Shown: piece by piece, positions 1 to 30,622 of the stretch
How positions within the stretch are numbered: the first letter of the stretch is position 1
How the letters are laid out: every line of letters begins with the position of its first letter
Assembly: GCA_965178125.1 (NCBI GenBank)
Contig: CBCXTV010000001.1
Coordinates: forward strand, 310,001-360,974
DNA length: 50,974 nucleotides
Direction of reading: 5' to 3'
DNA from: Bilabrum cf. latius
Taxonomy: Eukaryota
Notes under the pieces: generated by a model
Told to the model about the DNA's origin: nothing
What the model saw: only the letters and a program-made list of their open reading frames with translations
Databases searched by the model: none
Program-made: the position numbers and the translations under genes

Positions 1-1606
1 CAGCGCCATAGGGCAGAGCGTGAAGTACCTGGCCGCTTGGCTTGGCCGGACCCCCGCCCGCCCTCCGCCGGCAGCTCCTCCCGTCCGTCCCTATGGAGGC
101 AGATCCGCGTACCCATGCTGCGGCGGGATCCTGACACAATCCGCTCCTCTTAGTGTGTGGCCGTGGGGCATGAGTGGAGCAGCATCGGGCCCTCACCAGC
201 CGTGGAACGGAAGCAGCTCTCCGTGCGGCAGCTGTGCGATGCACAGACCTCGTCCCAAAGATACGGATCCATTTTGCCGTCTTCCCGCGCATACTGCATC
301 GCTCTGCAAAACTGCATTGCGCAGTGGATCCCCGAGCGTCGACTGCCAATAGCAGGCGGCCTCGCAAGGCCTTCATGGACGCAGGATTTGGGCTTCTTCA
401 TCGTAAATTTGGGGTCTGCTCAGCGCGCGAAAATTCCAACGCTTCAAAATGATCCGGACGTCGCGAGAAGGGAACTCGTTGCTTGCTCACCTGTGCGGAG
501 GGGTTGGATGCCCGATGTGCTAAAGAGAGGATACTGTCCGTCGGCGTTCTCTCTTCACCTTGTGCGGAAGGGTTGGGTGCCTGATTTCAGACAGAGAAGG
601 TCTCGTCCGTTGGGAGCGCTTAGGAATACTTCCGGATGGGGCGTCCAGACGCGGTCCAGGACCTCCAGCTCGTCGGGGTCAATGTCGCCCGCGCCGTCCG
701 TGCCTTTGACGCCCTCTGGATCGATGATGCCCACGATCTTTGTCATCTCGGACGACACACGTCCCAGCTGCTCTTTGGTAGTGCATTACCTCATTGACCC
801 CGAAGCGTTGAATATTTAATGAAGACCCTTCGGAAGCTGACGAAGTTTGTCAGCTTGTCGGAGCGCAGCCTGGGTCCTTGTCAACAAACATGGAGGGTTT
901 CGGGGCGGATTTCCAGCGTTCCGCCTTGATATCGAGTGCACCTCGAGGTCGGGATCGAAGCGGGGCGGGCGGTTCGTCATCCTCTGTGATACGCTTAGGA
1001 GGCGCCGACTTGATGCCCACCTTGTCCCCCAATCACTCCAGACGTAACTGGGGAACTCTACCCGTCGTGGGCCGGGTACGCCTCCGAATCCCACGCGAGC
1101 CGTTCCCCACGGCGCACCGATAAGCGCCGCTGCAAGCGTACCAAGAGGGGCGTACCAAGAGGTGCTTCCTTCGCTCGGCAGTGTGGCACTTCAAGCAGTA
1201 GAATGTGCCACTCCCAGCACGTAGGTGGAGTTTGCGAGCTGCCGGCCGACATGCTCGTGTGGTGACCTCCGGCGCACCGATAAGTGCCGCTGCAAGCGCA
1301 CCAATACTACTTCGCTTGGGAGCGTGGCACTTTAAGCAATGCAGTGCGCCGGTTTTCGTGCACGCCCAGTCGCGCGGACGCCGCAGGTGGCTTGGCGGTA
1401 GGATAGAATTAGTGGCGGGTCGGTTTTGCATGTCTTCCCTCTCCTCTTGATATGGTACACAAAGGCAAGAGCCTGACGATGCAGACGGAACTCCTGGATT
1501 TCACCGCCACATTCCTAGTCAAGACAGCCCTCGACTAAACAGACGCCGAGTTATCTTGAGCAGCATCCCACGACGCAGTGATGTGGACGGCAAGGGTGAT
1601 GCCATG

Positions 1607-4420
1607 CTTTCCGGGCCTCCCATGTGACCGCTTTTTGCGTACCGAAACACTTTCCGAGGTCGACGCCCCGGCGGAGCACGCCGGCGCGGCGGCAAGCGTC
1701 GATGTTGCGGGCGGCCCAGCCATGAGGTACATGATCAAGTACGCGGAAAGCACGCAGAGCGTCGTCAATCCGTTCGTGAGCCGCGAGTTCCAAAAGGTCT
1801 TCGAGCACATCCGCCCGGAAAGCACGCAGAGCATCGTCAATCCGTTCGTGAGCCGCGAGTTCCAGAAGGTCTTCGAGCACATCCCCCCGGAAAGCACGCA
1901 GAGCATCGTCAATCCGTTCGTGAGCCGCGAATTCCAAAAGGTCTTCGAGCACATCCCCCGGATGATGTCGAGCATGCGGACGCCCTGCTCCGGATGATGT
2001 CGGCCATGCGGACGCTCTTCCCAGACCTTGCGCGGCAGCGGGACGAAAATGGAGCTCTCCCTGCACCGCAAGCACGCCGGAAACCTGGTGCACTTCCACG
2101 TATGCATGACGGACTCCGAGAGGTCGCATCGTTGTCGCGTGGCGGAGGATTTCATTTGGGCCGGCAGCAGGCCGAATGTCGTGTACGGCTTTTAGGTACC
2201 GAACCCGAGCTCCCGGCAGCAGCGCAGGCGGCATGCTTGGGGCGGCACGTGGATCTTCGACGACGCCATTACGCTAAGCGATTGCGGGTCGAGGGTGCAG
2301 ATCGGCGCGCCGCAGTCGAAGCTCTTGGCGATGGTCGTGCCCCGGAAGTCGGGCCAGGGCATTCTCCGAGTCTCTTTGCCGATGATGTCTGAGGAGAAAC
2401 CGTCCGAGAGCATTGCTGTTTCCTTGGGAGACGGCCGCAATCTTCGTGGGCGTCAAGGCGCCGGTAATATGGGAAACGAGGGCGGCATGTTGGCGCGCGA
2501 GGTCGACGCCCCGGCGGAGCACGCCGGCGCGGCGGCAAGCGTCGATGTTGCGGGCGGCCCAGCCATGAGGCACATGATCAAGTACGCGGAAAGCACGCAG
2601 AGCGTTGTCAATCCGTTCGTGAGCCGCGAGTTCCAAAAGGTCTTCGAGCACATCCCCCCGGAAAGCACGCAGAGCGTCGTCAATCCGTTCGTGAGCCGCG
2701 AGTTCCAGAAGGTCTTCGAGCACATCCCCCCGGAAAGCACGCAGAGCATCGTCAATCCGTTCGTGAGCCGCGAGTTCCAAAAGGTCTTCGAGCACATCCC
2801 CCGGATGATGTCGAGCATGCGGACGCCCTGCTCCGGATGATGTCGGCCATGCGGACGCTCTTCCCAGACCTTGCGCGGCAGCGGGACGAAAATGGAGCTC
2901 TCCCTGCACCGCAAGCACGCCGGAAACCTGGTGCACTTCCACGTATGCATGACGGACTCCGAGAGGTCGCATCGTTGTCGCGTGGCGGAGGATTTCATTT
3001 GGGCCGGCAGCAGGCCGAATGTCGTGTACGACGTATGGTCAGACGCAGCCGCTTGGAAGGCGGGTGGCGGCGTGGCAGACGGGAAGGATGTCGGAACCTG
3101 GGGTTCATGGAAGACGCCTGCGAAGTCGTCATGGGGGGAGCCGTACGTGCCGTGGCAGGTCGCGCCGGAGCCGGCGGAGGAGGCGACATGGACTTGCAAC
3201 GCGTGCCAGGGCCTAAGCCCCGGTCAGAGTACTTCAAGAAGTGGAAGGACTGGATCCAACCAGTTTGCCGGGTGTGTTGCGACAAGTTCGACAACGCGAC
3301 GCCGTGGTGGGTGAGGTGCAAGAACTGCAAAAACGAGTATCCGGCGTACCGATTTCCCCAGAACCGCCGGAAGAAGGAGAACCTGCGCTATTTCTTCCCT
3401 GAGGACTGGTGCGCGAAGTGCCTGGTTGCGCGTGGCTGGAGTCTCCATGATGTCCGTTCCTCTGCGGGTGAAGCGAAGCGTTGGGTGCCAAAAGCTGGCG
3501 CGAATACCGGTGACGGCGACAACGACGCTCGTGCTCCCGCACGCGACGAGCCTCCTGCAGGAGGCGCCGCCTCCTGCAGCAACGCCGTGCGTCAGAGTCC
3601 TTCGCGTGACGAGGCCTTGGATGACATCAACCGGGCCATGGAGCTTCTCCGGAATGCGGAGAAATTCATCTCCGCGATGCCATCGTGCATGCAGTGTGCG
3701 GTGCAGGACCAGTTGATGCAGGGCATCGTCAAAGACCAGGCCCTCTTGGATATCTTCTCCGGCAAGATAACGGACTGGATCAAATACCATCCGGCCACTC
3801 TTGGGGCGATCCAATCCCATCGAAACGCATGGCTGTGGGCTGAGAACCACACGCCGACGGAATGGCTCATGGTTGTCGAGGATGATATCGAACCTCGCGA
3901 AGCATGCGTGGATCGGCTACTCGTAGTTCTTCACGCCATCGCGAAAACCCCAAGGTGACGCAGATGGCCATGTTAGCGGGGTCAGAAGCACCGAGAATGG
4001 TCAGCCTCCAGCGCGGAAACTCCACCTCCATCCACAACTGCGAGCGCCTCTTGGACGTGCGGACCTATCCGGCGCACTGGGTAGACAACACATTTGTGGT
4101 CCCCTACCACGTCGGCATGGGCCTAAAGTGGTATCTCATCAGCCCGGAGGGGAGGAAGGCGCTCCTGAAGATGCGGATCCCGAACCGAAGCTTCGAACGC
4201 TGCGTCTGGCGCCGCCTCTTCGACACGTTCCACGCCGGCGAAACCTCGAGTTTTGGCATCAAGATCGTGTCGCGGCCAGGCTGTACGACGGCGGCAAGAA
4301 GACGGAGAAGGAGGATGCTCACGGTATCGCCCTGATCATCTGCACGACTTCGTGGGGCTCCATGACGTAACGGCGAGCGAGAACATTGACTGGTGGCGTG
4401 GCTGGAGGATCTCGGGAACA
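1607..4420 (+). pseudogene. Mosaic of fragments of the element's own genes
   Basis: Consecutive pieces match rep, the GT25 gene, ORF18271 and ORF23036, with scattered substitutions, frameshifts and stops. Confidence 0.85.
1744..1960 (+). repeat. 3 x 72-bp tandem repeat derived from the GT gene (~10725-10797); the triplet recurs at ~2587-2803
   Basis: cggaaagcacgcag starts at 1744, 1816 and 1888; encodes ESTQSxVNPFVSREFQKVFEHIxP. Confidence 0.9.
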
Positions 4421-4725
4421 CACGGCGGGCGAGCCGTTTTTCAAAAGGAGCACGGGTCCTTCGGGACGCCATTTCACTTACGGCGGGCGAGCCGTTTTCC
4501 GAATGGTGCGGGGGTCCTACTGATGCACACGGCGATCGCTGGTTCACTCACGGCGGACACACGGCGGGCGAGCCGTTTTTCAAAAGGAGCACGGGTCCTT
4601 CGGGACGCCATTTCACTTACGGCGGGCGAGCCGTTTTCCGAATGGTGCGGGGGTCCTACTGATGCACACGGCGATCGCTGGTTCACTCACGGCGGGCGAG
4701 CCGTTTTCCGAATGGTGCGGAGTCC
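4421..4725. repeat. Array of five ACGGC-gggcga-GCCGT-tttt hairpin repeats
   Basis: Copies at 4422, 4480, 4561, 4619 and 4689 with spacers in A-B-A-B order. Confidence 0.85.
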
Positions 4726-5040
4726 TCCAGATGACCACGGTGATGGGTGGCAGCATGTCATAGGCGCGCCGTCGGAAGCTTCCCCTTCGAGTGCTGCCTA
4801 AAACTGAGAAACCTGGAGATCCTAGCATCGTATGGAGGCAAGAGGTAACACCTTGGGGTCCGTTCTCCGCTTCAATTCCTGTCCCAAATCCGATTCCCAT
4901 TTCGAGACCGAAAAAGGTGACCCGGAAAACGACGGTACTTATTTCTGAACCGTTTTCCGGACGCTTTCCGGGCCTCCCATGTGACCGCTTTTTGCGTACC
5001 GAAACACGTTCCGCGCGTGAGGAGCAGATGCGGGGATTTC

Positions 5041-5700
5041 GCCAAAAATGGCCGATCCGCACAAGGAATTTAAGTTGCGGCGACACAGCTCGGACCCCGG
5101 CTTTTTTTTGGCTGTTTCGGGGCCCCAAGAGGGCTCCCGGCCCCAAAAAGAGCGTTTTCGGGGGGCTCGGAAGGGGACCCCCCAGGATTTGGCCAAAAAT
5201 GGCCGATCCACACAAGGACTTTAAGTTGCGGCGACACAGTTCGGGCCCCGGTTTGTTTTTGCGGTTTGGGGGCCCCGAGAGGGCTCCCGGCCCCAAAAAG
5301 GGCAAAACGCGAGGTTGTGGTGGAAAAAATGGGCCCCAGGCAGCCCCCAAACGACGCAAAACGCCACGTTGTGGTGGATTTTAGAGCCCCTAAATCGCCC
5401 AAAAAAGACGCAAAACGCCACGTTGTGGTGGATTTTAGAGCCCCTAAATCGCCCCAAAGAGACGCAAAACGCCACGTTGTAGTGGATTTTAGAGCCCCTA
5501 AACCGCCCTAAAAAGACGCAAAACGCCACGTTGTGGTGTTTTTTTTTTTGAGCGTTTTGGGGGGGCCCGGAAGGGGACCCCCCCAGATTTGGCCCAAAAT
5601 GGCCGATCCACACAAGGAATTTAAGTTGCGGCGACACAGTTCGGGCCCCGGGGTTTGTTTTGCTGTTTGGGGGCCCCAAGAGGGCTCCCGGGAGGCCCTA
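5041..5700. repeat. Complex minisatellite: 54-bp units nested in a larger repeat
   Basis: gacgcaaaacgccacgttgt at 5353, 5407, 5461 and 5515; the aaaatggccgatcc...taagttgcggcgacacag block occurs three times. Confidence 0.9.
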
Positions 5701-8686
5701 GAGTGGCCCTTCTCCGCTTCAATTCCTGTCCCAAATCCGATTCCCATTTCGAGACCGAAAAAGGTGACCCGGAAAACGACGGTACTCTCCGTCACTCCAT
5801 CTGGCGGCGAAAATTGCCTCAGTTTCCGGTCCCCGATTCCGGGCCCAAGGACCCCCGAAATTCCCGATTCCGCGCAGTGCCGAAAGCTCGACATAAACCA
5901 CAAACACGACACACAACACAACACGATAGCGCCTCCCCACGCGCGGGATTGGGTCCTTCCGCTCGCTGCATGTGAGCTGCAGTGTGTTCTTGCCGGGAAT
6001 GTCACTGGAAGTCGCGCTGCAGTCTGCTCAGGGCGCCTTATGACCATGAAGGCGTCTCAGCACCCGCGACGGCAAGAGGGGGCACGCACGACGTTGCGAA
6101 GCACCCGCCCTGGGTGAAGAAACTGCGTATCCACAGGAGTCACGTTCAGTTGCGCGAGAATTGGAAAGGCGGGGTAACTGGTGCAGAGGAGCTTGTTCGC
6201 AGCGCGGCTTCCACCAGCGCCGCTGACGATAAGATGCATCGGTCTCGGTACATGAGTCGGCACGGTGTTGCGTGATTGACTTCACGATGCGGGAGTGTGC
6301 AGCCTTCCGCAGCGGGAGAATTGTATCTCCCCACGACCGCCGAAAAAAAAAAAAAAAAAGGCTATGCTGGACTCGTTCCAGGGAAGGCTATGCGATGAGT
6401 ATCTCTAGGCGCTTTCCGGAAGACCCACCCACTACACGCTGGTCAGCCCTCCCAAGCGGGAGTGAACCGCGGAGCCGCGGGCCCGTGAGCGCTGCTGCTA
6501 CGATCATTTCTGCCCGTTTGACTCTCGCCCACTCTTGCCGTGACCAAAGACGCGCAGATCCTTATGACGCATGACACCTCGTCGAGGTGTCGAGACTGCC
6601 TCACATTCCCGTTACGGAGACCCACAGCACTGCGACAACGAAATCGGTCACGAAGAGAGCAAGAGGCCGCGCACCTGAGCATCACAAAAACCCCGAGAGA
6701 CATAAACAACACCGTACCGTGAAGTCCCTGCGACGAGGGGATGCTAAGCGGCTCCCACGGCGGCTCCTCTGCGGGAGAAGCTGCCGCAGACCTCGAGATG
6801 GGATGCACATGATTGCGAAGATTGCGGAACTCGTCCGAAGCCGGTCGCACGAGGGTCACAGCGAATGGAGGCATATCTTTGAAATAGAGTCTGCGTGCAA
6901 AGCAGCATTCCAAACGATCGTCCGCATTCTTCCGAGCAAATCCTTGGGAGCACACATCCTGCGGACGACATCTCTTTTCTATCCACCCCAGCGTACTCCC
7001 CGCGCACACTTCTCGCGAATGATTGAGAATTCTGTGCGGCACATGTAATATCAGGCTACCATGATACGCGGAATGGCGTGCTATTGCTCGCACGTTCGTG
7101 CGCCCCCTTCCGAATGCGCTTACCACATCACTATGTTCGTCGGCAACCGTATACACCGTAGGGGTCTTCCCTCCGACACCAAGCGTACACGACTGGCCGT
7201 AATAGCGCAGCGTAGATGTTTCGGACGTCGCCCAGGACAAGTGTCGACGCCCGGTTCGTCACGATCACTACGTGTGCACTTCACTCACCGCCCTCCAGCC
7301 GCTAGACTTCTTTTGGAACGCGACATCCTACGACGCGCTATGACACGTAGCCGTAAACCGCAGACGGCCTCGCGTTCACTGCTTGCAGCGCAAGTGCGTG
7401 AACAAGAACCGCCCGCGTGGCACACCTTCGCAGGCGCGGAAGACAAAAAGTTCCTTCTAAGCTTGTATTCGGGTCCGAAAGCCAAATTCCACTTCGGGGT
7501 CGAGAAGGGCGACCCGGGAAATCACCGTACGCTCTGTGAATCCATTTCCCGGGGAAAGTCCCCGAGTTCCCGCTACCCGGTCCCAGGCCCAGCGACCCAG
7601 GAAAGTTCCCGTCCCCCCGCATGCGGAAACCTCCCACGAAGCACGCCCACCTCACGCTTCACACGCAAAAGTCCAGGAGTCAAATCCATTCCGGACCCAG
7701 CAGTTCACCCCCCGTGACGATTGGGAAAGGCTCTTGCACACACCTTCTCGTCCGAGCAGTCTATGGAGCACACGCCTGTCTTCGTTGCCTTTTCCGGCCA
7801 AAAATGCAGGGAGTTCGAAGGGGAAGTAGCAAACGCGGAAGACCGCTTTCGAAACGCAGGTGCTCAGGGAAAAACAACCAGAGCGTCCCTGATCCTCGGC
7901 AGAGCCGTCCAGGAGGGACGGGCACGGACGGGCATCGCAGATCTTGCAGCGCCACCATTCGCCGGGATGGGCGACCGGACGAGGGCGACCACAAGTACGT
8001 AGCGTGCGACGTCCGTCAGTCGCCATGTTGCGCTCATTCGCTTTCGCGGCACGACTTCCAGGGCCGGCCTTACTCACTCCTCGGAGTCCGCGTGTGGATT
8101 CTCCCCTGCGCACGATCTGCCGCTCTAGATGCTACACAAAGATCCCGCTCGGATGACCCCCTCTGTGCATTCTGCAAGATTTTACGCGCCTCCATTCAAT
8201 GCGCGAAGCATGCACCGCAGCAGTCTGAGTCCGGTGACCACCTTCAATAGCGTGGGACAAATTCCGTCCGCGATGTGCATTCGGGCATGCTCCCCTTTCC
8301 GAGTCTCTGTGACCCGTAGTGCGTCCGCGGCCAACGACTCAGGACTCCACGATGGTACGCACGAGTTGCATTCCTTGCACGAAGCGTGCGGAGAGAAAGC
8401 GATGCTCAGACATCGAGGCGCTTGGAGGGTCTGCACACGACATGCTTCGAGAGGCCATGCAAACATGCGAAACCAGAACTGAGGTTCCTCATCGTTCCTG
8501 CTGTCGAGCGCTCAATTGGGGCATCGGATCAGGACGAAGCTCGCGAAGAGAGGGCGCGGGTGTCCCCATCCAAAAATCCGCCGCCTTCAAGGCTCATGTT
8601 CCCGGATCCTGCATTCGCGAGTTTCGGGAGCAGAAGTGCAAGATCGCCGCTGGACACACAGCGCATGCCATTTCCCGTCTCTGGAG

Positions 8687-11248
8687 ATGTCGGGCTTCCA
8701 GGCGCAATTCGGACACCATCGCCAGGACCTCGGGAAGATGACATGTCTGCTGATCTGCAGGGAAGAGTCCCGCTTCGAGGAGTGGCGACAAAAAAAAGGG
8801 GCGCGAGAACTCCACGAGCACATGGGAGCGGTCCTTCGGCTCCCCAATCCAGTGTTTCCGCAGACCGACAGGGACCCAGATGGACGCGACATCGTCAAAG
8901 ACCAGGCCCTCTTGGATATCTTCTCCGGCAAGATAACGGACTGGAGCAAATACAATCCGGCCACTGTTGGGGCGATCCAATCCCATCGAAACGCATGGCT
9001 GTGGGCTGAGAACCACACGCCGACGGAATGGCTCATGGTTGTCGAAGATGATATCGAACCTCGCGAAGCATGCGTGGATCGGCTACTCGTAGTTCTTCAC
9101 GCCATCGCGAAAAACCCCAAGGTGACGCAGATGGCCATGTTAGCGGGGTCAGAAGCACCGAGAATGGTCACCCTCCAGCGCGAAAACTCCACCTCCATCC
9201 ACAATTGCGAGCGCCTCTTGGACGTGCGGACCTATCCGGCGCACTGGGTAGACAACACATTTGTGGTCCCCTACCACGTCGGCATGGGCCTAAAGTGGTA
9301 TCTCATCAGCCCGGAGGGGAGGAAGGCGCTCCTGAAGATGCGGATCCCGAACCGAAGCTTCGAACGCTGCGTCTGGCGCCGCCTCTTCGACACGTTCCAA
9401 GGGCCGGTATGGAAGTGGGGAGATTGCCTCCGCATGACATCTGTGCTGGCAGCCAGCCCGGTCCTCGCATCGACTCCCGAGAGCATGGACACGGAGTGGG
9501 GGGGCTCGGGACGACGAAGTGCGGATGCAGGGCACAGTATGAAACCGTACATAATGATCGACCCGAGTGACGACTGGACTCTTGGCGAGCGATTAAACAC
9601 ATTGTCCGTCGTGATGTCCGTGTGCGCGGCCCTGAGTTGGGGGGTTGTCCTCGTCTGGGAAAAAACAGAGCGCGTGCCCATCTCCTACGAAGACTTGTGC
9701 GGTGTTCACGAGCACGCCGGCGAAACCAACACGTTCGTCCACCTCCTCCAGGACAAACGCGGCGGGTCGTATTCGTACTTCCTGAGGTACGGAGACATCC
9801 GCATCCACGTGGTGCAGCCGATGATGTGCATCCCCACCCTCGACAGAATGCTCGACATGGTAGCCATGAAGAGGCCCAAGATGAACACCCTGCCTCCCTT
9901 GAAATGGCAGACCGCTCGATGGATCCAAGTCAAGCAGAAGTGGATCGATAAACTCCACACGGAGATGCCGGGGGCCGAGCTGCCCTCATGGCTGGAGTGG
10001 CCACCCTCAACCCACGCGCTTGTCCTCTGCGACGACAGGGACTTGGCGGCGCATTGCCTCGAGGGGAGATGCCAAGAGGAGCAGCAGGAGTGGATGAACG
10101 GCGGGAAGGACAACAGCATCCAGTACTACATCCTTGAGGCAAAGCAGGCGCTGCAGAACGAGTTGGAAGACATCCTAAAGGGGGACAGCAGCTCGCGCCT
10201 CGTCGTGATCCGCATGACAACCAAACCGCTGGGACAGGTCTGGGTGGACATGATGAAGCACCTCACGAAGCAGTTCAGGGAGCGCATCATAACGCCAACG
10301 TTCCTCCTCCCGAAAATGATCCCCAAAAGGAGGCACGACGAGAAGAACCCGAGTGATGATTGGATTACTTGGGGAGCATCCTTGGCGAAAACCGTGGGCC
10401 TCCTCACGCTCATACCTCCGATGCAAGTGCACTATCCCATCATGAGCTGGACCGTGGCCTGGAACCACTTCATGTTTAAGGGCAGGACTGCCACGGACAC
10501 CGTGATCCCAGACGTCATCCGAACTCTGTACGCTCCGCACAAGAGCAACAGGAAGCAGCTCCTCAAGAACGGCCCGCTGTGCCAGACGAGGCGCGCCGTG
10601 CTGGACTCGCCCGCACTGCGGGACATTGCGAACAACTACTCAAGGGCCAAGGACAAGACCTATAACCTCTTGAGTTATTCCAAATGGTTTGCCGAGGAAG
10701 CCATGTGGCACATGATCAAGTACGCGGAAAGCACGCAGTGCATCGTCGACCCGTTCGTGAGCCGCCAGTGCCAAAAGGTCTTCGAGCACATCCCCTCGGA
10801 CGACATCGGCCATGCGGACGCCCGGCTCCGGTACAACCTTCAGGATGCCGACGACCGAGGTTACCGCTTCAACGCGGGGCATCTCTACACCGCGGTGCAG
10901 GGCATCAAAACGGTGAACATCGCATACAACAAGTGGCTCACCGAGCAGGCACAGAGTCATTCCGAATGGAGCTGGGGCAAAACGTTCATCAAGCTTGTGA
11001 TCAACCAGTGGCGGCAGCAGCAGGGCAGTGAGCCGTATGACGTGGACGAGGAGGAGTACGTGAGCCTTCCGCGGACCTTCCACGGGAATTCGTTGAAGCT
11101 CGCGAGGAGCGTAAGCCACAAGGACACGAGATCCTGCTCCAGATCGTCCTCATCCTATTCCAGGTCGCCCTCCACCAACAGGACTGAGGCACAGCCTTCG
11201 AAGAGAGCGCGCCTGACCCCGGCACCCGGCGTAAAGCACGAGCCCTGA
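8687..11248 (+). CDS. Large protein with an N-terminal GT25-like glycosyltransferase domain
   Basis: GAIQSHRNAW...WLMVVEDDIE...WYLISPEGRKALL matches GT25 signatures (GCxxSHxxxW, hEDD, YhhSxxGAxxLL). ORF is open from 8516; first ATG is 8687. Confidence 0.7.
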   Translation: MSGFQAQFGHHRQDLGKMTCLLICREESRFEEWRQKKGARELHEHMGAVLRLPNPVFPQTDRDPDGRDIVKDQALLDIFSGKITDWSKYNPATVGAIQSHRNAWLWAENHTPTEWLMVVEDDIEPREACVDRLLVVLHAIAKNPKVTQMAMLAGSEAPRMVTLQRENSTSIHNCERLLDVRTYPAHWVDNTFVVPYHVGMGLKWYLISPEGRKALLKMRIPNRSFERCVWRRLFDTFQGPVWKWGDCLRMTSVLAASPVLASTPESMDTEWGGSGRRSADAGHSMKPYIMIDPSDDWTLGERLNTLSVVMSVCAALSWGVVLVWEKTERVPISYEDLCGVHEHAGETNTFVHLLQDKRGGSYSYFLRYGDIRIHVVQPMMCIPTLDRMLDMVAMKRPKMNTLPPLKWQTARWIQVKQKWIDKLHTEMPGAELPSWLEWPPSTHALVLCDDRDLAAHCLEGRCQEEQQEWMNGGKDNSIQYYILEAKQALQNELEDILKGDSSSRLVVIRMTTKPLGQVWVDMMKHLTKQFRERIITPTFLLPKMIPKRRHDEKNPSDDWITWGASLAKTVGLLTLIPPMQVHYPIMSWTVAWNHFMFKGRTATDTVIPDVIRTLYAPHKSNRKQLLKNGPLCQTRRAVLDSPALRDIANNYSRAKDKTYNLLSYSKWFAEEAMWHMIKYAESTQCIVDPFVSRQCQKVFEHIPSDDIGHADARLRYNLQDADDRGYRFNAGHLYTAVQGIKTVNIAYNKWLTEQAQSHSEWSWGKTFIKLVINQWRQQQGSEPYDVDEEEYVSLPRTFHGNSLKLARSVSHKDTRSCSRSSSSYSRSPSTNRTEAQPSKRARLTPAPGVKHEP

Positions 11249-13166: not shown

Positions 13167-13216
13167 GTGTCAAAAACTGGGGGTTTTTGAGGTTTTTTTC
13201 CAGAAAAACGGCATTT

Positions 13217-13425
13217 GGGGCCAACTGTCGGTTGTGGCCATACGCGTTGTGGCGTCGAGTCCGCGATCTCGTTGATTATGGCTTGAAAAACTATGACGGA
13301 AGCCACTGAGGGTGGTAAGTACTTCCAAAGGTGGAATCATGTGTACATTGCTTGCTCGATTTCAGCCACGTGCGCAAAAAACGGCCTCGATTTCGGTGCT
13401 GTTTTCGCCCCCGAAAAGCGAGCAC
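13217..13425 (+). ncRNA. Putative structured RNA cassette present only in copy 1
   Basis: Nested helices with multiple G-U pairs plus a 3' hairpin. Replaces an unrelated 209-bp segment found in copy 2 (39042-39250). Confidence 0.5.
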
Positions 13426-13768
13426 GATGCCCTCGAACGTCGTGTCTCATGTGGTATTCGCCGGTTTCTATGTTCGAGAAGGCGGTCGGTCGGTCATCCT
13501 CTCTGGCAGGCTCCGAAGTGCGTTTGTGATCGTGCTAATTGCAACGCCATGCTTTCCTTCGTTGGCTTCGAGAATCCTTCCCTCGGAAGCGGTACTACCT
13601 CGCCCAGGGCGGCACGAGCTGCAGACTCAGCTGCCTCGGTGCTCATGTGTGTCCCGTGTCAGCAGTTTCGGTGTTACGAACAGCAAGGATTCTGGGCATT
13701 GCGTGTCGGAGGCAAGTGTTCTATCTTGAGGCATTCCGCGATTCGTCGAAGGATTATTTGCGCAAATA

Positions 13769-16054
13769 ATGTCGGCTCCGTTCAAGGGCGAAACGATGAG
13801 TTTGTCTGTTGCCGAGTCGCTGAAGTCCCGAGTCGCATCCTGCTCCTGGGATCCCGCGTGGGTTTCCGCGAGCTGCGTGCCGTGCGATGGCCTCCCCACA
13901 AGCCAGGAGTCAGAAGCGTCCACGACGGCGACCTCTGCTTTGTTAGGGGTGTCCGAGGCGTCCCCAACGTGCTCGTGTGGCCTCGGTGTCTCCAATTCGG
14001 TGGCTGCAGCGCGCGCGGCCGCTGTCCCGAGTTTTGGCTTTGACGATGCGGAGAACGACTTCGACGCCAGTCTCGACATGATTGAGGCCTCATGCGAGGT
14101 CGCATGCGAGGCAGAATGCGAGGGCGATCCGGGAGCCTGCTTGTTGTCCCACGGCAAGTCGAGCGGTCAGTGGCAGATCGGCGTAGTGGGTGAACGAGTC
14201 CTTTATGAGGGCCTCAGCGTTGAGGGCGACATTCCTGGCCGCGTTGCTGCCTCCGAAGCGCTCGCCGCGGGTGTCATCAATTTGGAACCCCCGTCAGAGG
14301 AAGTACTTTTGCCGGTGCAGCTTCTGCGGAGTAGTCAAGGTTACCGTGGGGTTCTGCCCATCGAGGATTCTGCGCCCGATGCGAGGGGGCGACCGCAGAT
14401 GCTCATGCTTCCCGATTTCGTGCCCCCCGTGAAGAGGCGGCGTCTTCGGCAGAAGTGCGACCCTGCTGAGGGCGATGCAGCACCGAGTCTTGCGGCTCAT
14501 CTCGGACCTCCGCCCGCGGCTCGTGCCGCGGCCGGAGCGTCTGGGCCGCAGCGCTCGACTGGAAGGCCTTCGACTCGTCCTATTGATAGTGTCATCTATC
14601 GTCTCCTGCGGGTTTTCCCTGACGATTTCAAGTTGGCGTTTCCGGCGTCGGTGTCACACCAGCGGAAGCGGTGCCTCATCAGGGAGGCGCTTCGCAATGT
14701 ACCCGGTGACCGCATGTGCATCTTGAAAGACTGGGCTGCGGGGGCGGAGGACACTCCTTGCCAGCTTCGTTTCGAGGAGCTCTTCCCGGAGCTTGCGCGG
14801 CAGCGGGACGAAGTTGTGAGGAATCCGGGATCGCATTCAGTGCCCGTGGGCGAGATTGTGCCTGCGTCCGACAAGAACACGAGGCGGGGAAGGGCCGTGA
14901 TGCTTACCTTTCACGGTCGCTGGGGTGTCGAAAAGGAGCCTGTGCGCGACATCATGTCGGCATCCGTGGCAAGGGGCGTCCTGAGGCGATTGGTTCTCGC
15001 GTCTCCGTTCTATGTGGAGCTTTGGGCCACCTTCAAGGCATGGGCGCAGGACATCGCGCGGCGGATGATGTGGCCTCAGCTGTCCATGAAAATGGAGCTC
15101 TCCCTGCACCGCAAGCACGCCGCAAACTTGGTGCACTTCCACGTATGCATGACGGATTCCGAGAAGTCGCATCGTTGTCGCGTGGCGGAGGATTTCATGT
15201 GGGCCGGCAGCAGGCCGAATGTCGTCTACGGCTCCGGGCGGTCAGCGAAAGCGCAGGAACGTGGCGCGTCGGAGTTACACTATTATTGTCAAGCTCCCAA
15301 AGTCGGTGCGCTGCTTTGCGCCACGAACTACCGAGCCGGACGCGATTTCGTCGTCAATGGTAAGTTCGTGCACGCGTTGTTCGCACGCTTCAAAATGGAT
15401 CCGGACGTCGCGAGAAGGGAACTCGTGGCGTATCGGTGTCGGGACGCCGAGAACTTAGTGCGCGCCATCGACTTCCACATACAGAATGCCGCGGAGAGGA
15501 GAGAGGTGTGCGCGCAGGCCGCGGTGCACGTAGTGACGAAGCTCCGCCCCTTTAAGGTGGTGCCCGAAGTCGAGAAGTGGCGCGAGAGCTATCGTCAGGA
15601 GTGGTTCGCGCACATGCGCTTCAAGTTCCTTGTCTTGGTGGGGGACTCCCGGTTCGGGAAGACAGTGTACGCGCGGAATCTCTTCGGGAGCGAAAGGACT
15701 CTTGTTGTGAACTGTCAGGGCAGTGTGGAACCTCCGCTCCGTGGCTTCGATCGAAGTCGGCATGTGGCCATTGTGTTCGACGAGGCAAATGCCCTGTGGG
15801 TCGTCAACAACAAACAGGTCTTTCAGGCTGGCCTTGACCCCTCCCTGCTCGGCCAGAGCAAGACGAACAGCCTCGCATACTCTGTGTGGCTCCACGGTAT
15901 CGCCCTGATCATCTGCACGAATTCGTGGGGCTCTGACGTGACGGAGTCGGTGGACCGCGAGTGGCTTGACAACAACTGTACGAAAGTGGAGGTGAAAGAT
16001 CGGCTCTACTTCGACGAGGACTTGTTGTCTCTCACGGATGTGCAGAAGAGCTGA
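13769..16054 (+). CDS. rep: CRESS-type replication initiator: HUH endonuclease + SF3 helicase, with a long low-complexity N-terminal extension
   Basis: Motifs in canonical order: motif I VMLTF (~14897), motif II VHFHV (~15131), motif III HYYCQAPK (~15278), Walker A GDSRFGKT (~15641), Walker B IVFDE, motif C IICTN. Confidence 0.9.
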   Translation: MSAPFKGETMSLSVAESLKSRVASCSWDPAWVSASCVPCDGLPTSQESEASTTATSALLGVSEASPTCSCGLGVSNSVAAARAAAVPSFGFDDAENDFDASLDMIEASCEVACEAECEGDPGACLLSHGKSSGQWQIGVVGERVLYEGLSVEGDIPGRVAASEALAAGVINLEPPSEEVLLPVQLLRSSQGYRGVLPIEDSAPDARGRPQMLMLPDFVPPVKRRRLRQKCDPAEGDAAPSLAAHLGPPPAARAAAGASGPQRSTGRPSTRPIDSVIYRLLRVFPDDFKLAFPASVSHQRKRCLIREALRNVPGDRMCILKDWAAGAEDTPCQLRFEELFPELARQRDEVVRNPGSHSVPVGEIVPASDKNTRRGRAVMLTFHGRWGVEKEPVRDIMSASVARGVLRRLVLASPFYVELWATFKAWAQDIARRMMWPQLSMKMELSLHRKHAANLVHFHVCMTDSEKSHRCRVAEDFMWAGSRPNVVYGSGRSAKAQERGASELHYYCQAPKVGALLCATNYRAGRDFVVNGKFVHALFARFKMDPDVARRELVAYRCRDAENLVRAIDFHIQNAAERREVCAQAAVHVVTKLRPFKVVPEVEKWRESYRQEWFAHMRFKFLVLVGDSRFGKTVYARNLFGSERTLVVNCQGSVEPPLRGFDRSRHVAIVFDEANALWVVNNKQVFQAGLDPSLLGQSKTNSLAYSVWLHGIALIICTNSWGSDVTESVDREWLDNNCTKVEVKDRLYFDEDLLSLTDVQKS

Positions 16055-17500: not shown

Positions 17501-18270
17501 GCGAACGTGACCACACAATAGGCCATACCCCAGGTGAAATCCGGACTCGGACATCCAGACGAAACGGCATCATGCACACTGTTGAACACACAAATGACAC
17601 TGAGCTCCACCGTAACGTAACTTTCCATCACCACCTGGTTTATTTTCTCCGCGATGGCAGCTTGGCGGTGACGCTGTGTCTTCGGGCATGAAGGGGCAAA
17701 TCTTTGGTTTTTTGGGCCCTGTTTCGGTCACCGAAAAGTCGTGTGATTTCTGGCGCGCAGGAGGAGTGACGCAAGGTATTTCTGAACCGTTTTCCGGACG
17801 CTTTCCGGGCCTCCCATGTGACCGCTTTTTGCGTACCGAAACACGTTCCGCGCGTGAGGAGCAGATGCGGATCTCCGCGGGGTCCTAGTTGTGTCCTTTT
17901 TCGGGGGACGAAATCGGGCGCACTTGTCGTGCCGATTCGTGGTCGTCTCTGAGACCGGCTGCGAGTCGGGAAAGGTGCCCGGGAGATGCTCGTGTCCTTG
18001 GCTTCGTATTTCTCCGCGTATTCTTCAAACGCGGGCGCACGTCTCCTACCGATTCGTGGTCGGTTTCCGAGGCCGATCGCGAGTCGGGAAATGCGCCCGC
18101 GATGCGCTCTCGATCTCGGAAAGGGCGGGAGTCCGTTCTTGCATTCGGAATGGGCGGGGAGTTGCTTTTCCTGGGAGCATGTGCGAGATTCCTTCTCCGC
18201 GGGTCCTCTTTCGGCTTCGGCAGTCAGCAGCGCACTCTGCGGGAACGGCATTCTCCGAGTCTCTTTGCCG

Positions 18271-19278
18271 ATGATGTCTGAGGAGAAACCGTCCGAGAGC
18301 ATTGCTGTTTCCTTGGGAGACGGCCGCAATCTTCGTGGGCGTCGAGGCGCCGGTGATATGGGAAACGAGGGCGGCATGTTGGCGCGCGAGGTCGACGCCC
18401 CGGCGGAGCACGCCGGCGCGGCGGCAAGCGTCGATGATTCGGGCGGCCCCCACATCGAGAGCGGCGGCGCGGAGGCGGCGTCCACGGGGATGCTCGGAGA
18501 GGAGAGCGGCAAGGCAGCGCCGAAGGAGGACGCCGAAGACGACGGCGGCAAGAAGACGGAGGAGGAGGATGCTCGCGGCGGTGGACGTGCTGTGGTGCCC
18601 GGAGGTAATGACGACGTATGGACCGACGCAGCAGCTTGGAAGGCGGGTGGCGGCGTGGCAGCCGGGGCGGTCTCTGGCGCTGATAGCTGGGTTCTATGGG
18701 GGACCCCTGCGAAGTCGTCATGGGGGGAGACGTACGTGCCGCGGCAGGTCGCGCCGGAGCCGGCGGAGGAGGCGACATGGACTTGCAACGCGTGCCAGTG
18801 CTGCAAGCCCCGGTCGGCGTACTTCAAGAAGTGGAAGGACTGGATCCAACCAGTTTGCCGGGTGTGTTGCGACAAGTTCGACAACGCGACGCCGTGGTGG
18901 GTGTGGTGCAAGAACTGCAAAAACGAGTATCCGGCGTACCGATTTCCCCAGATCCGCCGGAAGAAGGAGAACCTGCGCTATTTCTTCCCTGAGGACTGGT
19001 GCGCGAAGTGCCTGGTTGCGCGTGGCTGGAGTCTCCATGATGTCCGTTCCTCTGCGGGTGAAGCGAAGCGTTGGGTGCCAAAAGCTGGCGCGAATACCGG
19101 TGACGGCGACAACGACGCTCGTGCTCCCGCACGCGACGAGCTTCCTGCAGGAGGCGCCGCCTCCTGCAGCAACGCCGTGCGTCAGAGTTCTTCGCGTGAC
19201 GAGGCCTTGGATGACATCAAGCGGGCCATGGAGCTTCTCCAGAATGCGGAAAGGTTCCTCCTCACGATGCCAGCGTGA
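18271..19278 (+). CDS. Hypothetical protein with an acidic disordered N-terminus and two zinc-ribbon units
   Basis: CNAC...CRVC and CKNC...CAKC pairs. Start placed at MMSEEKP inside ORF 17986-19278. Confidence 0.65.
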   Translation: MMSEEKPSESIAVSLGDGRNLRGRRGAGDMGNEGGMLAREVDAPAEHAGAAASVDDSGGPHIESGGAEAASTGMLGEESGKAAPKEDAEDDGGKKTEEEDARGGGRAVVPGGNDDVWTDAAAWKAGGGVAAGAVSGADSWVLWGTPAKSSWGETYVPRQVAPEPAEEATWTCNACQCCKPRSAYFKKWKDWIQPVCRVCCDKFDNATPWWVWCKNCKNEYPAYRFPQIRRKKENLRYFFPEDWCAKCLVARGWSLHDVRSSAGEAKRWVPKAGANTGDGDNDARAPARDELPAGGAASCSNAVRQSSSRDEALDDIKRAMELLQNAERFLLTMPA

Positions 19279-20905: not shown

Positions 20906-21479
20906 TCCTCGGCAGCTCCTGCATCGGAGCCTCCTGTCGAGATTCGATCGCGCAACGTCGTTCCTTACATTGCTTGCCGTCGCATGTGCCGGGCGGTGGT
21001 GGGTGTGCGTGTTCGCCGAAAGTTCCCGGCCTCGTCTTCCTCAGGAGAGCTCCTCGACCCGAAATTGGCAGCTCAGCGCTGCCGTGGCCGATACAGTACC
21101 CGTGCACGGCCAGTTGGCAGCTACGCGCTGCCGTTGCCAATGTCGTCCGCACGAGAGCAGAGTGGCAGCTCAGCGCAGGCGAGAAACCGCGCTCGCAATG
21201 CTGCGAGGTGTATTCAATGCTGTGCACGTGTCTATCCCTCTCCCTGGTTTTGTCTCGCTTGCGCCAGTGTGACCGCAGCAGAGCGGGTGCTTCCCGTGCG
21301 TCTTCAGCTTTGAGCACTCCTCCAGCGACAGGAAGGCATTCGCTTGCTCTCGCTCCCCGCCTGCGTCCTATCCCTCCCGGGTATCTTCAGAGGCCACAGG
21401 CAGTGCGAAGCTTGGCAGCGGGTCCGTCCGCGTCGTTTCGGCTGTGAGCGATCTTCTGCCCGGTTCCTCACGCGTCATA

Positions 21480-23081
21480 ATGTCCTCTGCTTCGGTGCCG
21501 GATCAGCTCGCACGGATCAGTAAGGAGCTGAAGTGTCTCAGAGACGCGAGACAACGGGCGCGCAATGGGCTGCGCCATCCGTGGTTGCGCGCCATGGAGG
21601 CACAGGTCGCTGAGGTTATTCGTCATCACCCCGGAGGTGGCGAGGCAGCTCTTCGAACCTATGTCTCTCGTCAGTTGCAGAGTCGACAGGTTTCCACGCG
21701 GACGGCTTCGCAGGAGGAGTTTCAAAGGCAGGTCGATGAGGAGGTCGCGCTCACCATGAGGCGCCCAGCTGAGGCGTGGCAGCGAAATCCTCTTCGCTCA
21801 TGTCATCGAGAGTCCGTGGCACGCGCAGAGGCCTTTCTCGCCGAGGCTTCTGTCGTTGCTTGGATCGACCATGTGAACGAGCAGCGTGGGTGTGCTCCAA
21901 CTGGGAACATGGTTTTCGCCATGCTTGCGAGGATGGGCGTTCGCGCGGGGAAGGACTCGGCTCGACGGCAGTGGCTCCTGCGCTTCCGTCGTCGTTGGCG
22001 GCTTCGGCATGGCCGATTGAAGAAGCAGCCCCCGGTAACACTCGATTACGTCAGACTCGCGTGTCGTGTCTTCTATCAGTGGATTGAATTCGCAGAAGCG
22101 CGAGTGCCCCCCAACCGCCGCCTCGTCTTTGTGAACTTCGATGAGTCCAGCGTGCCCTTTGCCTTTCCGGGAATGCGCGGGTACATCGCACCGAGGTCAG
22201 GAACGGAGCCCGCTTCGCTTGGTTCGCGCACGGAGCGCCTCGCCTCGAATAGCAATCGAGGATCGTACACCTTTCTGGGTTTTATTAGCGACTGCCCGGA
22301 AATCCAGCGACGACTCCCGCGTATACTCATCGGGAAGCACACGCGGCTGAGCAAGCGCTTGATGCGTGGGGCGCCGAACCAAATGGTGGACGGAATGGAA
22401 GTCTGGGCCCGAGAGAGCTCGTGGGTGACGCAGTCCCTCATGTTCGACATTCTGCGTCGGCTTTTCGCTTCTTGGATGGACATTCAGCATGAGATCTATC
22501 CAATAGTGATACTTGACTGCGCGCCCCAACACATTTCCACTGAGATTGTGAACTTCGCACACGGCCTTGGCATGGATCTCGTGTTTATTCCTGGTCGACT
22601 CACCTTCTTGCTTCAGCCGTTGGACGTTCTCGTCTTTCAGCTTCTTAAGCGCGACCTTCGGGAGACGTGGATGCAGGAGCGCTCGCGTCATGAAGCGGGT
22701 CATGTCGATGTCTCTTGCCATCTCAGGGTTGTCGCTGAGTGCACGAAGAGAGTGCTCTCGTCTGGCTCGTGGCAAGGCGCTTTCGATATGACAGGCATTA
22801 CCAGCGGCAGGCGCCGCTTGCATTCGACCCTACGGCGCTTGTTTGAGTGTGACATGGAGGACATCTCCAGCGATGCTCCGTCTGTCGACCAGCTCCGCTT
22901 CATCAGCAGTCCGCAGCAGCCTCTCCCGCACGATGCGCTCATCAACAGGGCCCCAGTCGCGTCCGGACACGGGGTCGACGGAGGCGTCCACGGTGGTAAC
23001 GCTCGCCGCGTGCCTCGTGGCCGCAGACTAAACGGATGGACCCCCCGCGATCGCGCTCACCCCTCGGCGGCCATGCCGTGA
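21480..23081 (+). CDS. pogo-family (DDE_1) transposase, DD35D
   Basis: VNFDES / ILDCAPQH / LQPLDV triad with 35 residues between the 2nd and 3rd D. WLLRFRRRW resembles the end of a CENP-B-type HTH. First ATG is 21480; the ORF is open from 21444. Confidence 0.85.
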   Translation: MSSASVPDQLARISKELKCLRDARQRARNGLRHPWLRAMEAQVAEVIRHHPGGGEAALRTYVSRQLQSRQVSTRTASQEEFQRQVDEEVALTMRRPAEAWQRNPLRSCHRESVARAEAFLAEASVVAWIDHVNEQRGCAPTGNMVFAMLARMGVRAGKDSARRQWLLRFRRRWRLRHGRLKKQPPVTLDYVRLACRVFYQWIEFAEARVPPNRRLVFVNFDESSVPFAFPGMRGYIAPRSGTEPASLGSRTERLASNSNRGSYTFLGFISDCPEIQRRLPRILIGKHTRLSKRLMRGAPNQMVDGMEVWARESSWVTQSLMFDILRRLFASWMDIQHEIYPIVILDCAPQHISTEIVNFAHGLGMDLVFIPGRLTFLLQPLDVLVFQLLKRDLRETWMQERSRHEAGHVDVSCHLRVVAECTKRVLSSGSWQGAFDMTGITSGRRRLHSTLRRLFECDMEDISSDAPSVDQLRFISSPQQPLPHDALINRAPVASGHGVDGGVHGGNARRVPRGRRLNGWTPRDRAHPSAAMP

Positions 23082-30002: not shown

Positions 30003-30307
30003 CACGGCGGGCGAGCCGTTTTTCAAAAGGAGCACGGGTCCTTCGGGACGCCATTTCACTTACGGCGGGCGAGCCGTTTTCCGAATGGTGCGGGGGTCCT
30101 ACTGATGCACACGGCGATCGCTGGTTCACTCACGGCGGACACACGGCGGGCGAGCCGTTTTTCAAAAGGAGCACGGGTCCTTCGGGACGCCATTTCACTT
30201 ACGGCGGGCGAGCCGTTTTCCGAATGGTGCGGGGGTCCTACTGATGCACACGGCGATCGCTGGTTCACTCACGGCGGGCGAGCCGTTTTCCGAATGGTGC
30301 GGAGTCC
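30003..30307. repeat. Hairpin repeat array, copy 2
   Basis: Same as copy 1. Confidence 0.85.
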
Positions 30308-30622
30308 TCCAGATGACCACGGTGATGGGTGGCAGCATGTCATAGGCGCGCCGTCGGAAGCTTCCCCTTCGAGTGCTGCCTAAAACTGAGAAACCTGGAG
30401 ATCCTAGCATCGTATGGAGGCAAGAGGTAACACCTTGGGGTCCGTTCTCCGCTTCAATTCCTGTCCCAAATCCGATTCCCATTTCGAAACCGAAAAAGGT
30501 GACCCGGAAAACGACGGTACTTATTTCTGAACCGTTTTCCGGACGCTTTCCGGGCCTCCCATGTGACCGCTTTTTGCGTACCGAAACACGTTCCGCGCGT
30601 GAGGAGCAGATGCGGGGATTTC

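Follow-up and report, generated by a model that had tools for sequence, protein, structure and literature searches.

We describe here a patchwork of gene fragments, located at positions 2194-4373 of an apparently undescribed mobile element, and we show that it was copied from the element's own genes through at least 10 separate non-homologous joins with overlaps of 0-7 nucleotides (nt). The window, that is, the whole stretch of 50,974 nt that was analysed (Bilabrum cf. latius, GenBank assembly GCA_965178125.1, contig CBCXTV010000001.1, positions 310,001 to 360,974 of the forward strand), consists of a unit of about 25.6 kb that is present twice, head to tail, and that encodes a Rep protein resembling those of the CRESS (circular Rep-encoding single-stranded) DNA viruses, with a superfamily 3 (SF3) helicase, together with a DDE_1 protein. 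Each unit carries five long open reading frames (ORFs) of codon-periodic composition on the + strand, G1 to G5, and the fragments come from G1, G2, G3 and G5. The same joins occur in sequencing runs from other studies, and the sequence comparisons show that diverged members of the family, and not the gene copies that now lie in the unit, were the sources of the pieces. The joins keep the reading frames of the donors more often than chance would have it, an excess that is nominally significant. We tentatively read this as the trace of serial non-homologous joins whose products were filtered for translatability, in a copy that has since decayed, and we rank this reading first among those weighed below.

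A patchwork tiled by fragments of four genes

The region 2194-4373 is tiled without remainder by 11-13 pieces that are 87-99% identical to G1, G2, G3 and G5 of the unit (Table 1). A short-word BLAST search tiles the longer interval 1606-4373 nearly gaplessly onto other positions of the unit, and a Viterbi parse under a copy model, in which any position and either strand were allowed, led to a matching segmentation with every templated piece on the + strand. The tiling also agrees with tblastn searches using the donor proteins, and every piece of at least 14 nt maps to the unit's own genes. The ranges in the table are those of the BLAST alignments, in which neighbouring pieces overlap by microhomology. 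Two of the pieces, S4 (16 nt) and S10 (15 nt), are marginal matches (E 0.03-0.1) that are lost at a stricter jump penalty. Upstream, the patchwork is preceded by a partial duplicate of itself, block A, whose head is a 51-nt copy of sequence found 136-186 nt before the G3 ATG.

The copy in the window is interrupted. A single nucleotide is missing from a C run near 2802 (third 72-nt unit of S3), from S7 at 3213 and from an A run of S9 at 3944; S7 also contains an indel-rich patch at 3084-3112 (net -6), and S13 a +2 insertion at 4361, followed by a TAA stop at 4368-4370. Together with the TAG at 2193-2195, these are the few frameshifts and the one stop that the sequence-only reading of this DNA, made from the letters and a list of ORFs, had reported. 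The patchwork is identical in both tandem units, which means that it predates the duplication of the unit.

Two further observations touch the patchwork and its donors. An isolated 44-nt fragment of the Rep gene (439-482, from 15385-15429, 96-98% identical) lies 1.1 kb upstream of it. The indel-rich patch of S7 corresponds to a hypervariable patch of G3 (18660-18700), at which the G3 of the window, the patchwork copy and P0012, a G3 homologue described below, differ by in-frame indels, with a 12-aa insertion in P0012.

Table 1. Pieces of the patchwork, their origin in the unit, and the ORFs of the unit
Feature	Positions	Strand	Origin and remarks
Block A	1606-2190	+	upstream partial duplicate; 1655-2187 vs 2498-3030 at 99.06%
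Block A contents	1606-2190	+	G3-upstream piece (17800-17850); G3 18387-18449; G1 10699-10831 (72-nt unit x3)
Block A contents, continued	1606-2190	+	G1 10806-10821; G2 14779-14812; G2 15088-15233
Join A5/S1	2191-2195	+	3-nt filler TTT; TAG 2193-2195; donor phases agree
S1	2194-2364	+	G5 23415-23585; 96.3% identical over 2194-2357 (G5 23415-23578)
S2	2358-2560	+	G3 18247-18449; 98.0%; in phase with S1 and S3
S3	2561-2836	+	G1 10699-10831; about 90%; 72-nt (24-codon) unit triplicated
S4	2833-2858	+	32-nt tandem duplication of the S3 end (period 2801 to 2833); matches G1 10806-10821
S5	2857-2890	+	G2 14779-14812; phase differs from that of S6 (offsets within G2 are 278 nt apart)
S6	2888-3030	+	G2 15088-15230; Rep residues about 441-488, with HFH as the HUH motif
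S7	3028-3687	+	G3 18611-19277; residues 210-430, ending at base 2 of the G3 stop codon
S8	3685-3725	+	G5 23782-23822; in phase at both ends
S9	3724-4232	+	G1 8890-9399; residues 126-294; 98-99% identical
S10	4231-4245	+	G1 9713-9727; 15-nt exact match, marginal (E 0.097)
S11	4245-4284	+	G5 23861-23900; 87%
S12	4285-4324	+	G3 18539-18578; in phase at both ends
S13	4320-4373	+	G2 15893-15944; Rep helicase motif C region, HGIALIICT
Second tandem patchwork copy	27776-29955	+	no difference from the first
G1 (donor)	8516-11248	+	910 aa; no Pfam family
G2 (donor)	13769-16054	+	761 aa; Rep with HUH, YxxK, Walker A/B and SF3-helicase-like fold
G3 (donor)	17986-19278	+	430 aa; Cys-rich C-terminal half; no Pfam family
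G4	21444-23081	+	Pfam DDE_1 match, 2.2e-11
G5 (donor)	23036-24100	+	354 aa; no family match

Phase of the joins

The phase was computed locally for each join, from the starts of the donor ORFs and the local alignment offsets. The joins A5/S1, S1/S2, S2/S3, S6/S7, S7/S8, S8/S9, S9/S10, S11/S12 and S12/S13 are in phase, and S3/S4 (the 32-nt tandem duplication), S4/S5, S5/S6 and S10/S11 are out of phase; S4 is thus out of phase at both of its ends, and S10 shares the phase of S9 and not that of S11. This amounts to 8 in-phase joins among the 12 inside 2194-4373 and to 9 among 13 when the left-edge join is included, so that the count of about 9 in 12 coding joins given by the sequence-only reading holds up well, and the five peptide joins that it quoted are all present in the sequence. 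Leaving out the marginal pieces S4 and S10 gives 8/11 or 9/11, depending on how the filler is scored.

For 9 of 13, the binomial tail is 0.0088 with an expected fraction of 1/3 and 0.019 with 0.37; for 8 of 12, the corresponding values are 0.019 and 0.036, and the remaining ways of counting give 0.009-0.057 with nulls from 1/3 to 0.40. When each join is given its own null, a Poisson-binomial calculation for at least 9 of 12, the tandem duplication being excluded, yields 0.008-0.009. By these measures, the excess of in-phase joins is nominally significant.

One explanation that had been offered for this excess is that microhomology in codon-biased DNA favours in-phase switches. The overlaps, as aligned, measure 7, 0, 2, 3, 3, 3, 2, 2, 1, 0 and 5 nt, plus one 3-nt filler; those of 7 and 5 nt contain mismatches, and the in-register identity at most joins is near chance. 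Among the k-mers that are shared between the four donor ORFs, the fraction in phase rises from 0.349 (k=1) to 0.384 (k=3), 0.421 (k=5) and 0.465 (k=7). A second null, conditioned on the in-register identity within +-4 to +-15 nt of each join, gives an in-phase fraction of 0.34-0.41 among pairs of positions that match equally well or better, with a mean of 0.365-0.375, against the 0.69-0.75 observed. Since the nulls specific to each join are far below the observed fraction, microhomology does not account for the in-phase excess: with nulls of 0.35-0.46, it is insufficient as a cause. The in-frame rate that joins simulated among the donor genes would have had to reproduce in order to explain the pattern away is likewise beyond the reach of the donor-gene null.

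Orientation, coding origin and block III

Phase is not the only biased property of the pieces. All distinct pieces (11/11) are co-oriented (p about 0.0005 if orientation were random). Selection is not needed for this, however, since forward jumps along a circular template or a head-to-tail concatemer would have the same effect. Short overlaps or filler at the joins and templated pieces are features shared with microhomology-mediated break-induced replication and with fork stalling and template switching (MMBIR/FoSTeS). Mixed orientations of the templated pieces are common in the described cases of this type, whereas all the pieces are + here.

The coding origin of the pieces is a further bias. 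Of the 11 independent pieces, 10 derive from ORFs, although the codon-periodic ORFs cover 43% of the donor space (p=0.0016); if two pieces outside the patchwork are included, the count is 11/13 (p=0.003). The non-ORF piece is the one that lies 136-186 nt upstream of the G3 ATG, and it could correspond to a 5' untranslated region (UTR). As a separate observation, this G3-upstream sequence (17777-17870) recurs in the unit, as an exact 94-nt copy at 4940-5033 and as the 51-nt copy at 1606-1656, and it may be a promoter or leader module.

The longest in-phase run, which we call block III, extends from S6, its head, to S10 (2888-4245). An in-frame ATG is found within S6 at 2892-2894, one codon after the start of the run, and the probability of four consecutive in-phase joins, as found in this block, is 0.37^4=0.019. 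In particular, the S7/S8 join falls inside the stop codon of G3 (TGA 19276-19278, S7 ending at 19277), so that this stop is lost and the reading runs on into G5 and G1. By phase arithmetic, block III without both of its 1-nt deletions would be open from 2892 to a TGA at 4333-4335, which represents about 480 codons. In the present copy, the longest ORF that starts with an ATG is 2837-3958 (373 aa), and in it S6 and part of S7 are read in a frame that is not that of the donors.

The patchwork in other sequencing runs

Of 24 listed runs, 18, which come from 14 studies and bear many coded organism labels, contain the stretch or parts of it; none of these runs is on record as RNA. The comparison was made with the assembled contigs of four of these runs (X1, X5, X8 and X12), and indels were compared between runs, unphased with respect to the mosaic. 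Contigs of X5 bridge the joins S7/S8 (record 21) and S11/S12 and S12/S13 (record 23); record 21 also extends 30 nt past S8/S9, one nucleotide below the rule for bridging. Contigs of X8 bridge S11/S12 and S12/S13 (record 32) as well as S3/S4 and S4/S5 (record 28), but block A also carries the latter two joins, so that record 28 is not assignable to 2194-4373.

The 1-nt indels that the sequence-only reading had placed near 3210 and 3948 fared differently from one run to another. They are the majority form in X1, but X5 and X8 contain only forms without the deletions at 3213 and 3944. In X5, the sole contigs over 3156-3374 and 3724-4105 are without the frameshifts, and their depth is 236-297, against 128-178 for the parts that are specific to the mosaic. 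This roughly double depth is consistent with a donor and a patchwork that share the sequence, that is, with a patchwork copy in which block III is open. One X12 contig, uninterrupted in the manner of the G3 gene, has patchwork-type sequence over 3028-3313, which points to other G3 alleles as sources.

In the run X1, the family of the element is variable and very high-copy. As many as 9,686 of its contigs fall on the 3.6 kb between 1400 and 5000, with summed depths of several hundred thousand and many alternative joints, which implies that rearranged copies are numerous. One of these extra joints, 3160>2659(+A), occurs in two runs.

Source alleles, and the points that weigh against a filter

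A number of results weigh against the idea that the patchwork was filtered for translatability. The statistics rest on about 12 events, the pattern was noticed post hoc, and the same is true for the ATG and the clipped stop of block III. The 60 substitutions between mosaic and donors fall 20/20/20 on the three codon positions, and 17 of them (28%) are synonymous, against 22.7% expected from random mutation; purifying selection thus does not appear in the mosaic-donor substitutions as the sequences present them. In the copy at hand, four joins are out of phase, four indels shift the frame and a TAG lies at the left-edge join. In X1, the window forms at 3213 and 3944 are the majority, and the deletion near 2802 likewise. 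No chimeric protein with the architecture of the patchwork was found among 5.8 billion predicted proteins, in the length bands 205-653 and 135-433 aa. Finally, the extra joints seen in the runs are of mixed phase: 2519>3133(+G), 3362>3841(+T), 3362>2391(+TC), 3362>3215(+TC) and 4320>3030(+GA) are in phase, and 3160>2659(+A), 2232>1807(+G) and 2232>1810(+GACC), the last two of which may be one join, are out of phase, so that 5 of 8 are in phase, but only 1 of 4 among those that connect different genes. These phases were obtained by hand from the alignment offsets, with joints containing intervening ambiguous letters left unscored; four of the five in-phase joints are within G3, and the depth of three is 5-11, where the summed depth is about 500,000.

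Part of this evidence bears on a single polyprotein across the region, which the sequence-only reading had proposed as one possible object of selection. The out-of-phase joins and the junctional TAG mean that no single ORF ever spanned the patchwork, and with the four frameshifting indels they exclude this proposal. Selection for a chimeric protein in a more general sense keeps part of its ground: the coding-only origin of the pieces, the ATG, the clipped stop and the X5 contigs without two of the frameshifts speak for it, and the lack of an intact ORF, with mosaic-donor substitutions that show no codon-level constraint, speaks against it.

The weight of the substitution pattern also depends on where the pieces came from. 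The search of the protein set with the mosaic ORFs gave only G3-like and G1-like proteins. The first of them, P0012, has 442 aa, is 99% identical to G3 and is encoded by a public contig of 25,927 bp from another assembly; at two sites where the window's G3 departs from the patchwork, it has the patchwork form. The second, P0013, is an independent G3-like protein (84% identical) that carries the patchwork residues E and R and the C-terminal EKFISAMPS, and the third, P0014, is a frameshifted G1-like protein that carries the patchwork residues S and G. These matches indicate that other alleles, in a variable and partly decayed family, were the templates of the pieces. Since the sources are other alleles, the substitution pattern says little about constraint within the lineage of the patchwork.

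How the patchwork may have formed

The template would have been a circular or a concatemeric, head-to-tail form of the Rep replicon, on which forward template switches would have produced the joins; deletions would be equivalent. Such a topology would keep the pieces co-oriented automatically. The products would then have been filtered for translatability at the time of their formation, such that in-frame fusions of sense-strand coding fragments into open chimeric ORFs persisted. The outcome would be two or three chimeric ORFs and not one polyprotein: block I (2196-2840), block III, which would extend from the ATG at 2892 to about 4335 and unite a Rep HUH fragment, the C-terminal half of G3, 13 aa of G5 and residues 126-294 of G1, and a short block IV. 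What the filter acted on might be a regulatory or dominant-negative protein, or else no more than the sparing from decay of a transcript that is translated. The chimeric ORFs would no longer be maintained in the window's lineage and would be decaying there. A translatability filter has the advantage that it would explain the biases in orientation, coding origin and phase together, at the price of accepting a later decay, and it is on this balance that we prefer it, short of conviction.

A bolder version of the same idea, which we regard as improbable, is that of a self-tinkering locus. The element would repeatedly fuse sense-strand fragments of its own genes in frame, beside a repeat-rich non-genic region, and thereby give rise to chimeric proteins, such as the product of block III. 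As decoy or dominant-negative subunits, these proteins would affect the replication of the element or its copy number, and the openness of the ORFs would vary by isolate.

Next in rank to the translatability filter comes a neutral origin, somewhat unlikely in our judgement, in which the patchwork is scrap from serial illegitimate template switches or deletions on a concatemeric or circular replicon, no selection is involved, and the phase excess is made of sampling noise and a slight codon periodicity. Much of the above fits with it: the joins with their overlaps of 0-7 nt and a flanking identity at chance level, the neutral-looking substitutions and the four frameshifting indels, the four out-of-phase joins and the junctional stop, p values of merely 0.01-0.04, and the frequent rearrangement to which the 9,686 contigs of X1 and their joints attest. 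It explains the co-orientation as well, and many further dispersed direct repeats are present in the non-genic part of the unit. What it leaves aside is the distance between the microhomology or homeology null (0.35-0.41) and the observed 0.69, the 10 of 11 pieces from ORFs that cover 43% of the donor space (p=0.0016), and the ATG and clipped stop of block III, which become further coincidences. The coding-only origin would have to be attributed to a more compact ancestor, but a circular relative of 13 kb is about half ORF, and a much more compact ancestor is thus unsupported.

A third possibility, to which we give little credence, is an origin from transcripts, or one coupled to transcription through breaks and template switches that cluster in transcribed genes, without selection of the frame and with the phase agreement being due to chance. 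All the pieces are indeed sense and, with the exception of the G3-upstream piece (a possible 5' UTR), derived from ORFs, and all the long ORFs of the unit are on one strand. However, the scanned ORFs showed no reverse transcriptase, no poly(A) remnant is found at the 3' edge of the patchwork, and no GT..AG was seen by eye at the donor sides of the joins. The 9 in-phase joins of 13, the ATG and the clipped stop would also be left unexplained.

Even less probable to us is a phase bias of purely mechanistic nature, in which the sites of breakage and re-entry are tied to codon position, for instance through the preference of a nuclease or polymerase on DNA with a period of 3. The donor ORFs are strongly period-3 (GC by codon position is 0.56/0.44/0.77 in G1), and ACGACG opens the right-hand pieces at S6/S7 and S11/S12. 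On the other hand, the left ends of the in-phase joins are spread over codon positions 1, 2 and 3 without preference (hand arithmetic), and the k-mer and window nulls, which include period-3 effects, reach 0.35-0.46 at most. Inspection by eye gave no motif common to the 12 joins, apart from the ACGACG of two right-hand pieces, and site-specific joining by the Rep or the transposase was rejected on the same ground.

Last, a chimeric mis-assembly of a high-copy repeat family is scarcely credible: the family is very high-copy and variable in X1, and the 1-nt deletions are in homopolymer runs, but both tandem copies are identical over the patchwork, short-read contigs from other studies (X5 records 21 and 23, X8 records 28 and 32) bridge joins without differences, the stretch or part of it is in 18 of 24 listed runs from 14 studies, and X1 contigs carry the window form at 3213 and 3944 as the majority.

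Comparison with known systems

At the level of abstracts and listings, the literature yielded only analogues, both for this element family and for an in-frame mosaic of self-derived fragments. The nearest in spirit are the tinkering loci of Drosophila, in which a locus gathers duplicated gene fragments that give rise to composite proto-genes (bioRxiv 10.64898/2026.08.09.743762). As in the abstract-level account of that work, fragments of unrelated genes are united at one defined locus, but the fragments in Drosophila are those of host genes, brought together by ectopic recombination at transposons (bioRxiv 10.64898/2026.08.09.743762). Here, the fragments are those of the element's own four genes, they lie within 2.8 kb, all sense and mostly in phase, and they are known from sequence alone.

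In bacteria, deletions reportedly fuse fragments of distant genes into new ORFs. Serial deletions on a head-to-tail array would yield a co-oriented patchwork of the present kind; what differs is the many successive joins at one site, the eukaryote-like element of low gene density, and a product that is now broken. Replicons that make mosaics of their own genes, by short-homology recombination or copy-choice, are found among plant mitochondrial chimeric ORFs and the defective or rearranged genomes of rolling-circle and RNA viruses; some of these mosaics are translated, and some interfere with the parent. The patchwork resembles a defective genome in being derived from the parent genome by deletion or rearrangement, since its pieces map to the unit's genes. 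It differs in that it forms no separate shortened molecule: it sits inside both full-length units, beside all of its donor genes. In such cases of chimeric ORFs, the in-frame status is usually known via a protein or a phenotype, whereas the patchwork was found without such ascertainment. Mobile elements can also carry co-transcribed fragments of several host genes, as in the captures by Helitrons and Pack-MULEs, but the patchwork re-uses the element's own genes and not those of a host, and G2 is not a RepHel protein, being SF3-like and not Pif1-like. The present case differs from these analogues in that the only genes recycled by this mobile replicon are its own, and in that the copied fragments, all sense and for the most part in frame, are gathered at a single site within the full-length element.

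If the translatability filter is true, this would be a compact natural case of gene birth by shuffling inside a mobile replicon, in which the raw material, the joins and the decay can be read in one stretch of 2.2 kb, with the parent genes a few kilobases away. It would also suggest that an element with a Rep gene is able to produce fused or shortened forms of the proteins that it encodes, and these would be candidates for self-regulation. If it is not true, the patchwork still documents cleanly how low-homology template switches followed one another on a replicon of the rolling-circle type.

The Rep protein and the relatives of the element

The label of HUH Rep that the sequence-only reading had given to the G2 product is justified by motif and fold, though without a curated sequence family. 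G2 has 11 homologues with 30-53% identity in metagenome-derived proteins, and in the alignment of the 12 sequences the motif II HUH histidines H456 and H458 (HFH in the window) are invariant. Motif III, YxxK with a single Tyr, reads HYYCQAPK, with Y506, Q508 and K511 invariant, and a catalytic role of this Y506 motif may be inferred. The Walker A residues of GxSxxGKT (G630, K631, T632) and the Walker B residues D671 and E672 are invariant across the alignment as well. An AlphaFold model of the C-terminal 392 residues has a mean pLDDT (predicted local distance difference test) of 85.7, and its top Foldseek matches are Rep68 of adeno-associated virus 2 (AAV-2; E 1.7e-8), the Rep of Vientovirus, NS1 of parvovirus B19 (B19V) and papillomavirus E1. 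At the level of sequence families, no Rep or SF3-helicase Pfam family was found for G2 or its 11 homologues, a few of which have sub-threshold matches to generic AAA families (AAA_24, AAA_22; best E 0.087); the curated-family labels Gemini_AL1, RNA_helicase and Viral_Rep are found only on feature-based Atlas neighbours of G2, and a sequence search of the PDB with G2 gave no match up to E=1.

Relatives of the element come from metagenomes, in which 36 loci with 26-46% identity were found. The Rep has no match in IMG/VR, with single-sequence or alignment patterns, tblastn against plasmid and phage collections gave no match to the element, and the single match in prokaryote genomes is one 1.9-kb contig of a metagenome-assembled genome. 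Circular relatives of 13 kb occur in aquatic metagenomes: one of them, L012 (1-13155, with a terminal overlap of 99 bp), has a Rep and a DDE_1 protein on one strand, and its ORFs of at least 150 aa total about 6.5 kb, that is, about half of its length (hand arithmetic). Self-comparison of the 14 metagenome loci of at least 3.5 kb revealed no comparable self-derived patchwork, and these relatives therefore provide no independent test.

The Replitrons are another point of comparison. They are high-copy eukaryotic elements with a Y1 Rep related to the Reps of CRESS-DNA viruses, and their transposase, in the abstract and outline of the description, consists of the Rep and an oligomerisation domain with no fused helicase (PMC10288648). 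Our element is like them in being eukaryotic, high-copy and HUH-Rep-encoding, but its G2 has a Walker A/B, SF3-helicase-like half, and self-derived patchworks are absent from the Replitron description at the level of abstract and outline (PMC10288648). Membership among the Replitrons was rejected because of this fused SF3-like helicase half.

Other features of the unit

The two units of the window are nearly identical: positions 1-5150 match 25583-30732 at 99.98%, and the remainder at 99.84-99.99%; the units differ in length near 5150 (by 246 bp) and at 13216-13426. The G+C content is about 0.6 across the window. Among the other genes, residues 110-420 of G1 have a weak feature-based match that makes them a candidate for glycosyltransferase family 25. 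G4 and G5 overlap by 46 nt in different frames, and they might be one gene split by a frameshift or two separate genes. Scans of the unit with Rfam and for tRNAs gave no match, nor did a 21-nt spliced-leader motif of dinoflagellates, with up to 3 mismatches permitted.

Directly downstream of the patchwork, at 4418-4750, a 139-bp unit is present exactly twice, together with diverged 58-bp subrepeats, each with ACGGCGGGCGAGCCGTTTT-like motifs. By their sequence, these repeats look like iterons; an inverted-repeat search over 4300-8600 gave no convincing origin hairpin. A tandem array of 54 bp (4.6 copies) is found at 5290-5538 and 30722-31373. A non-genic module of 80 nt is present in 2-3 copies (4860-4939, 5707-5786 and about 7480-7560), the first two being 98.8% identical, and it reads ...FETEKGDPENDGT... 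in one frame. All the other dispersed repeats of the unit are direct, with no inverted copies except short palindromes, and they include intergenic pairs of 82-91% identity at 19542-19940/20042-20461, 12531-12650/25462-25580 and 12955-13084/24357-24490.

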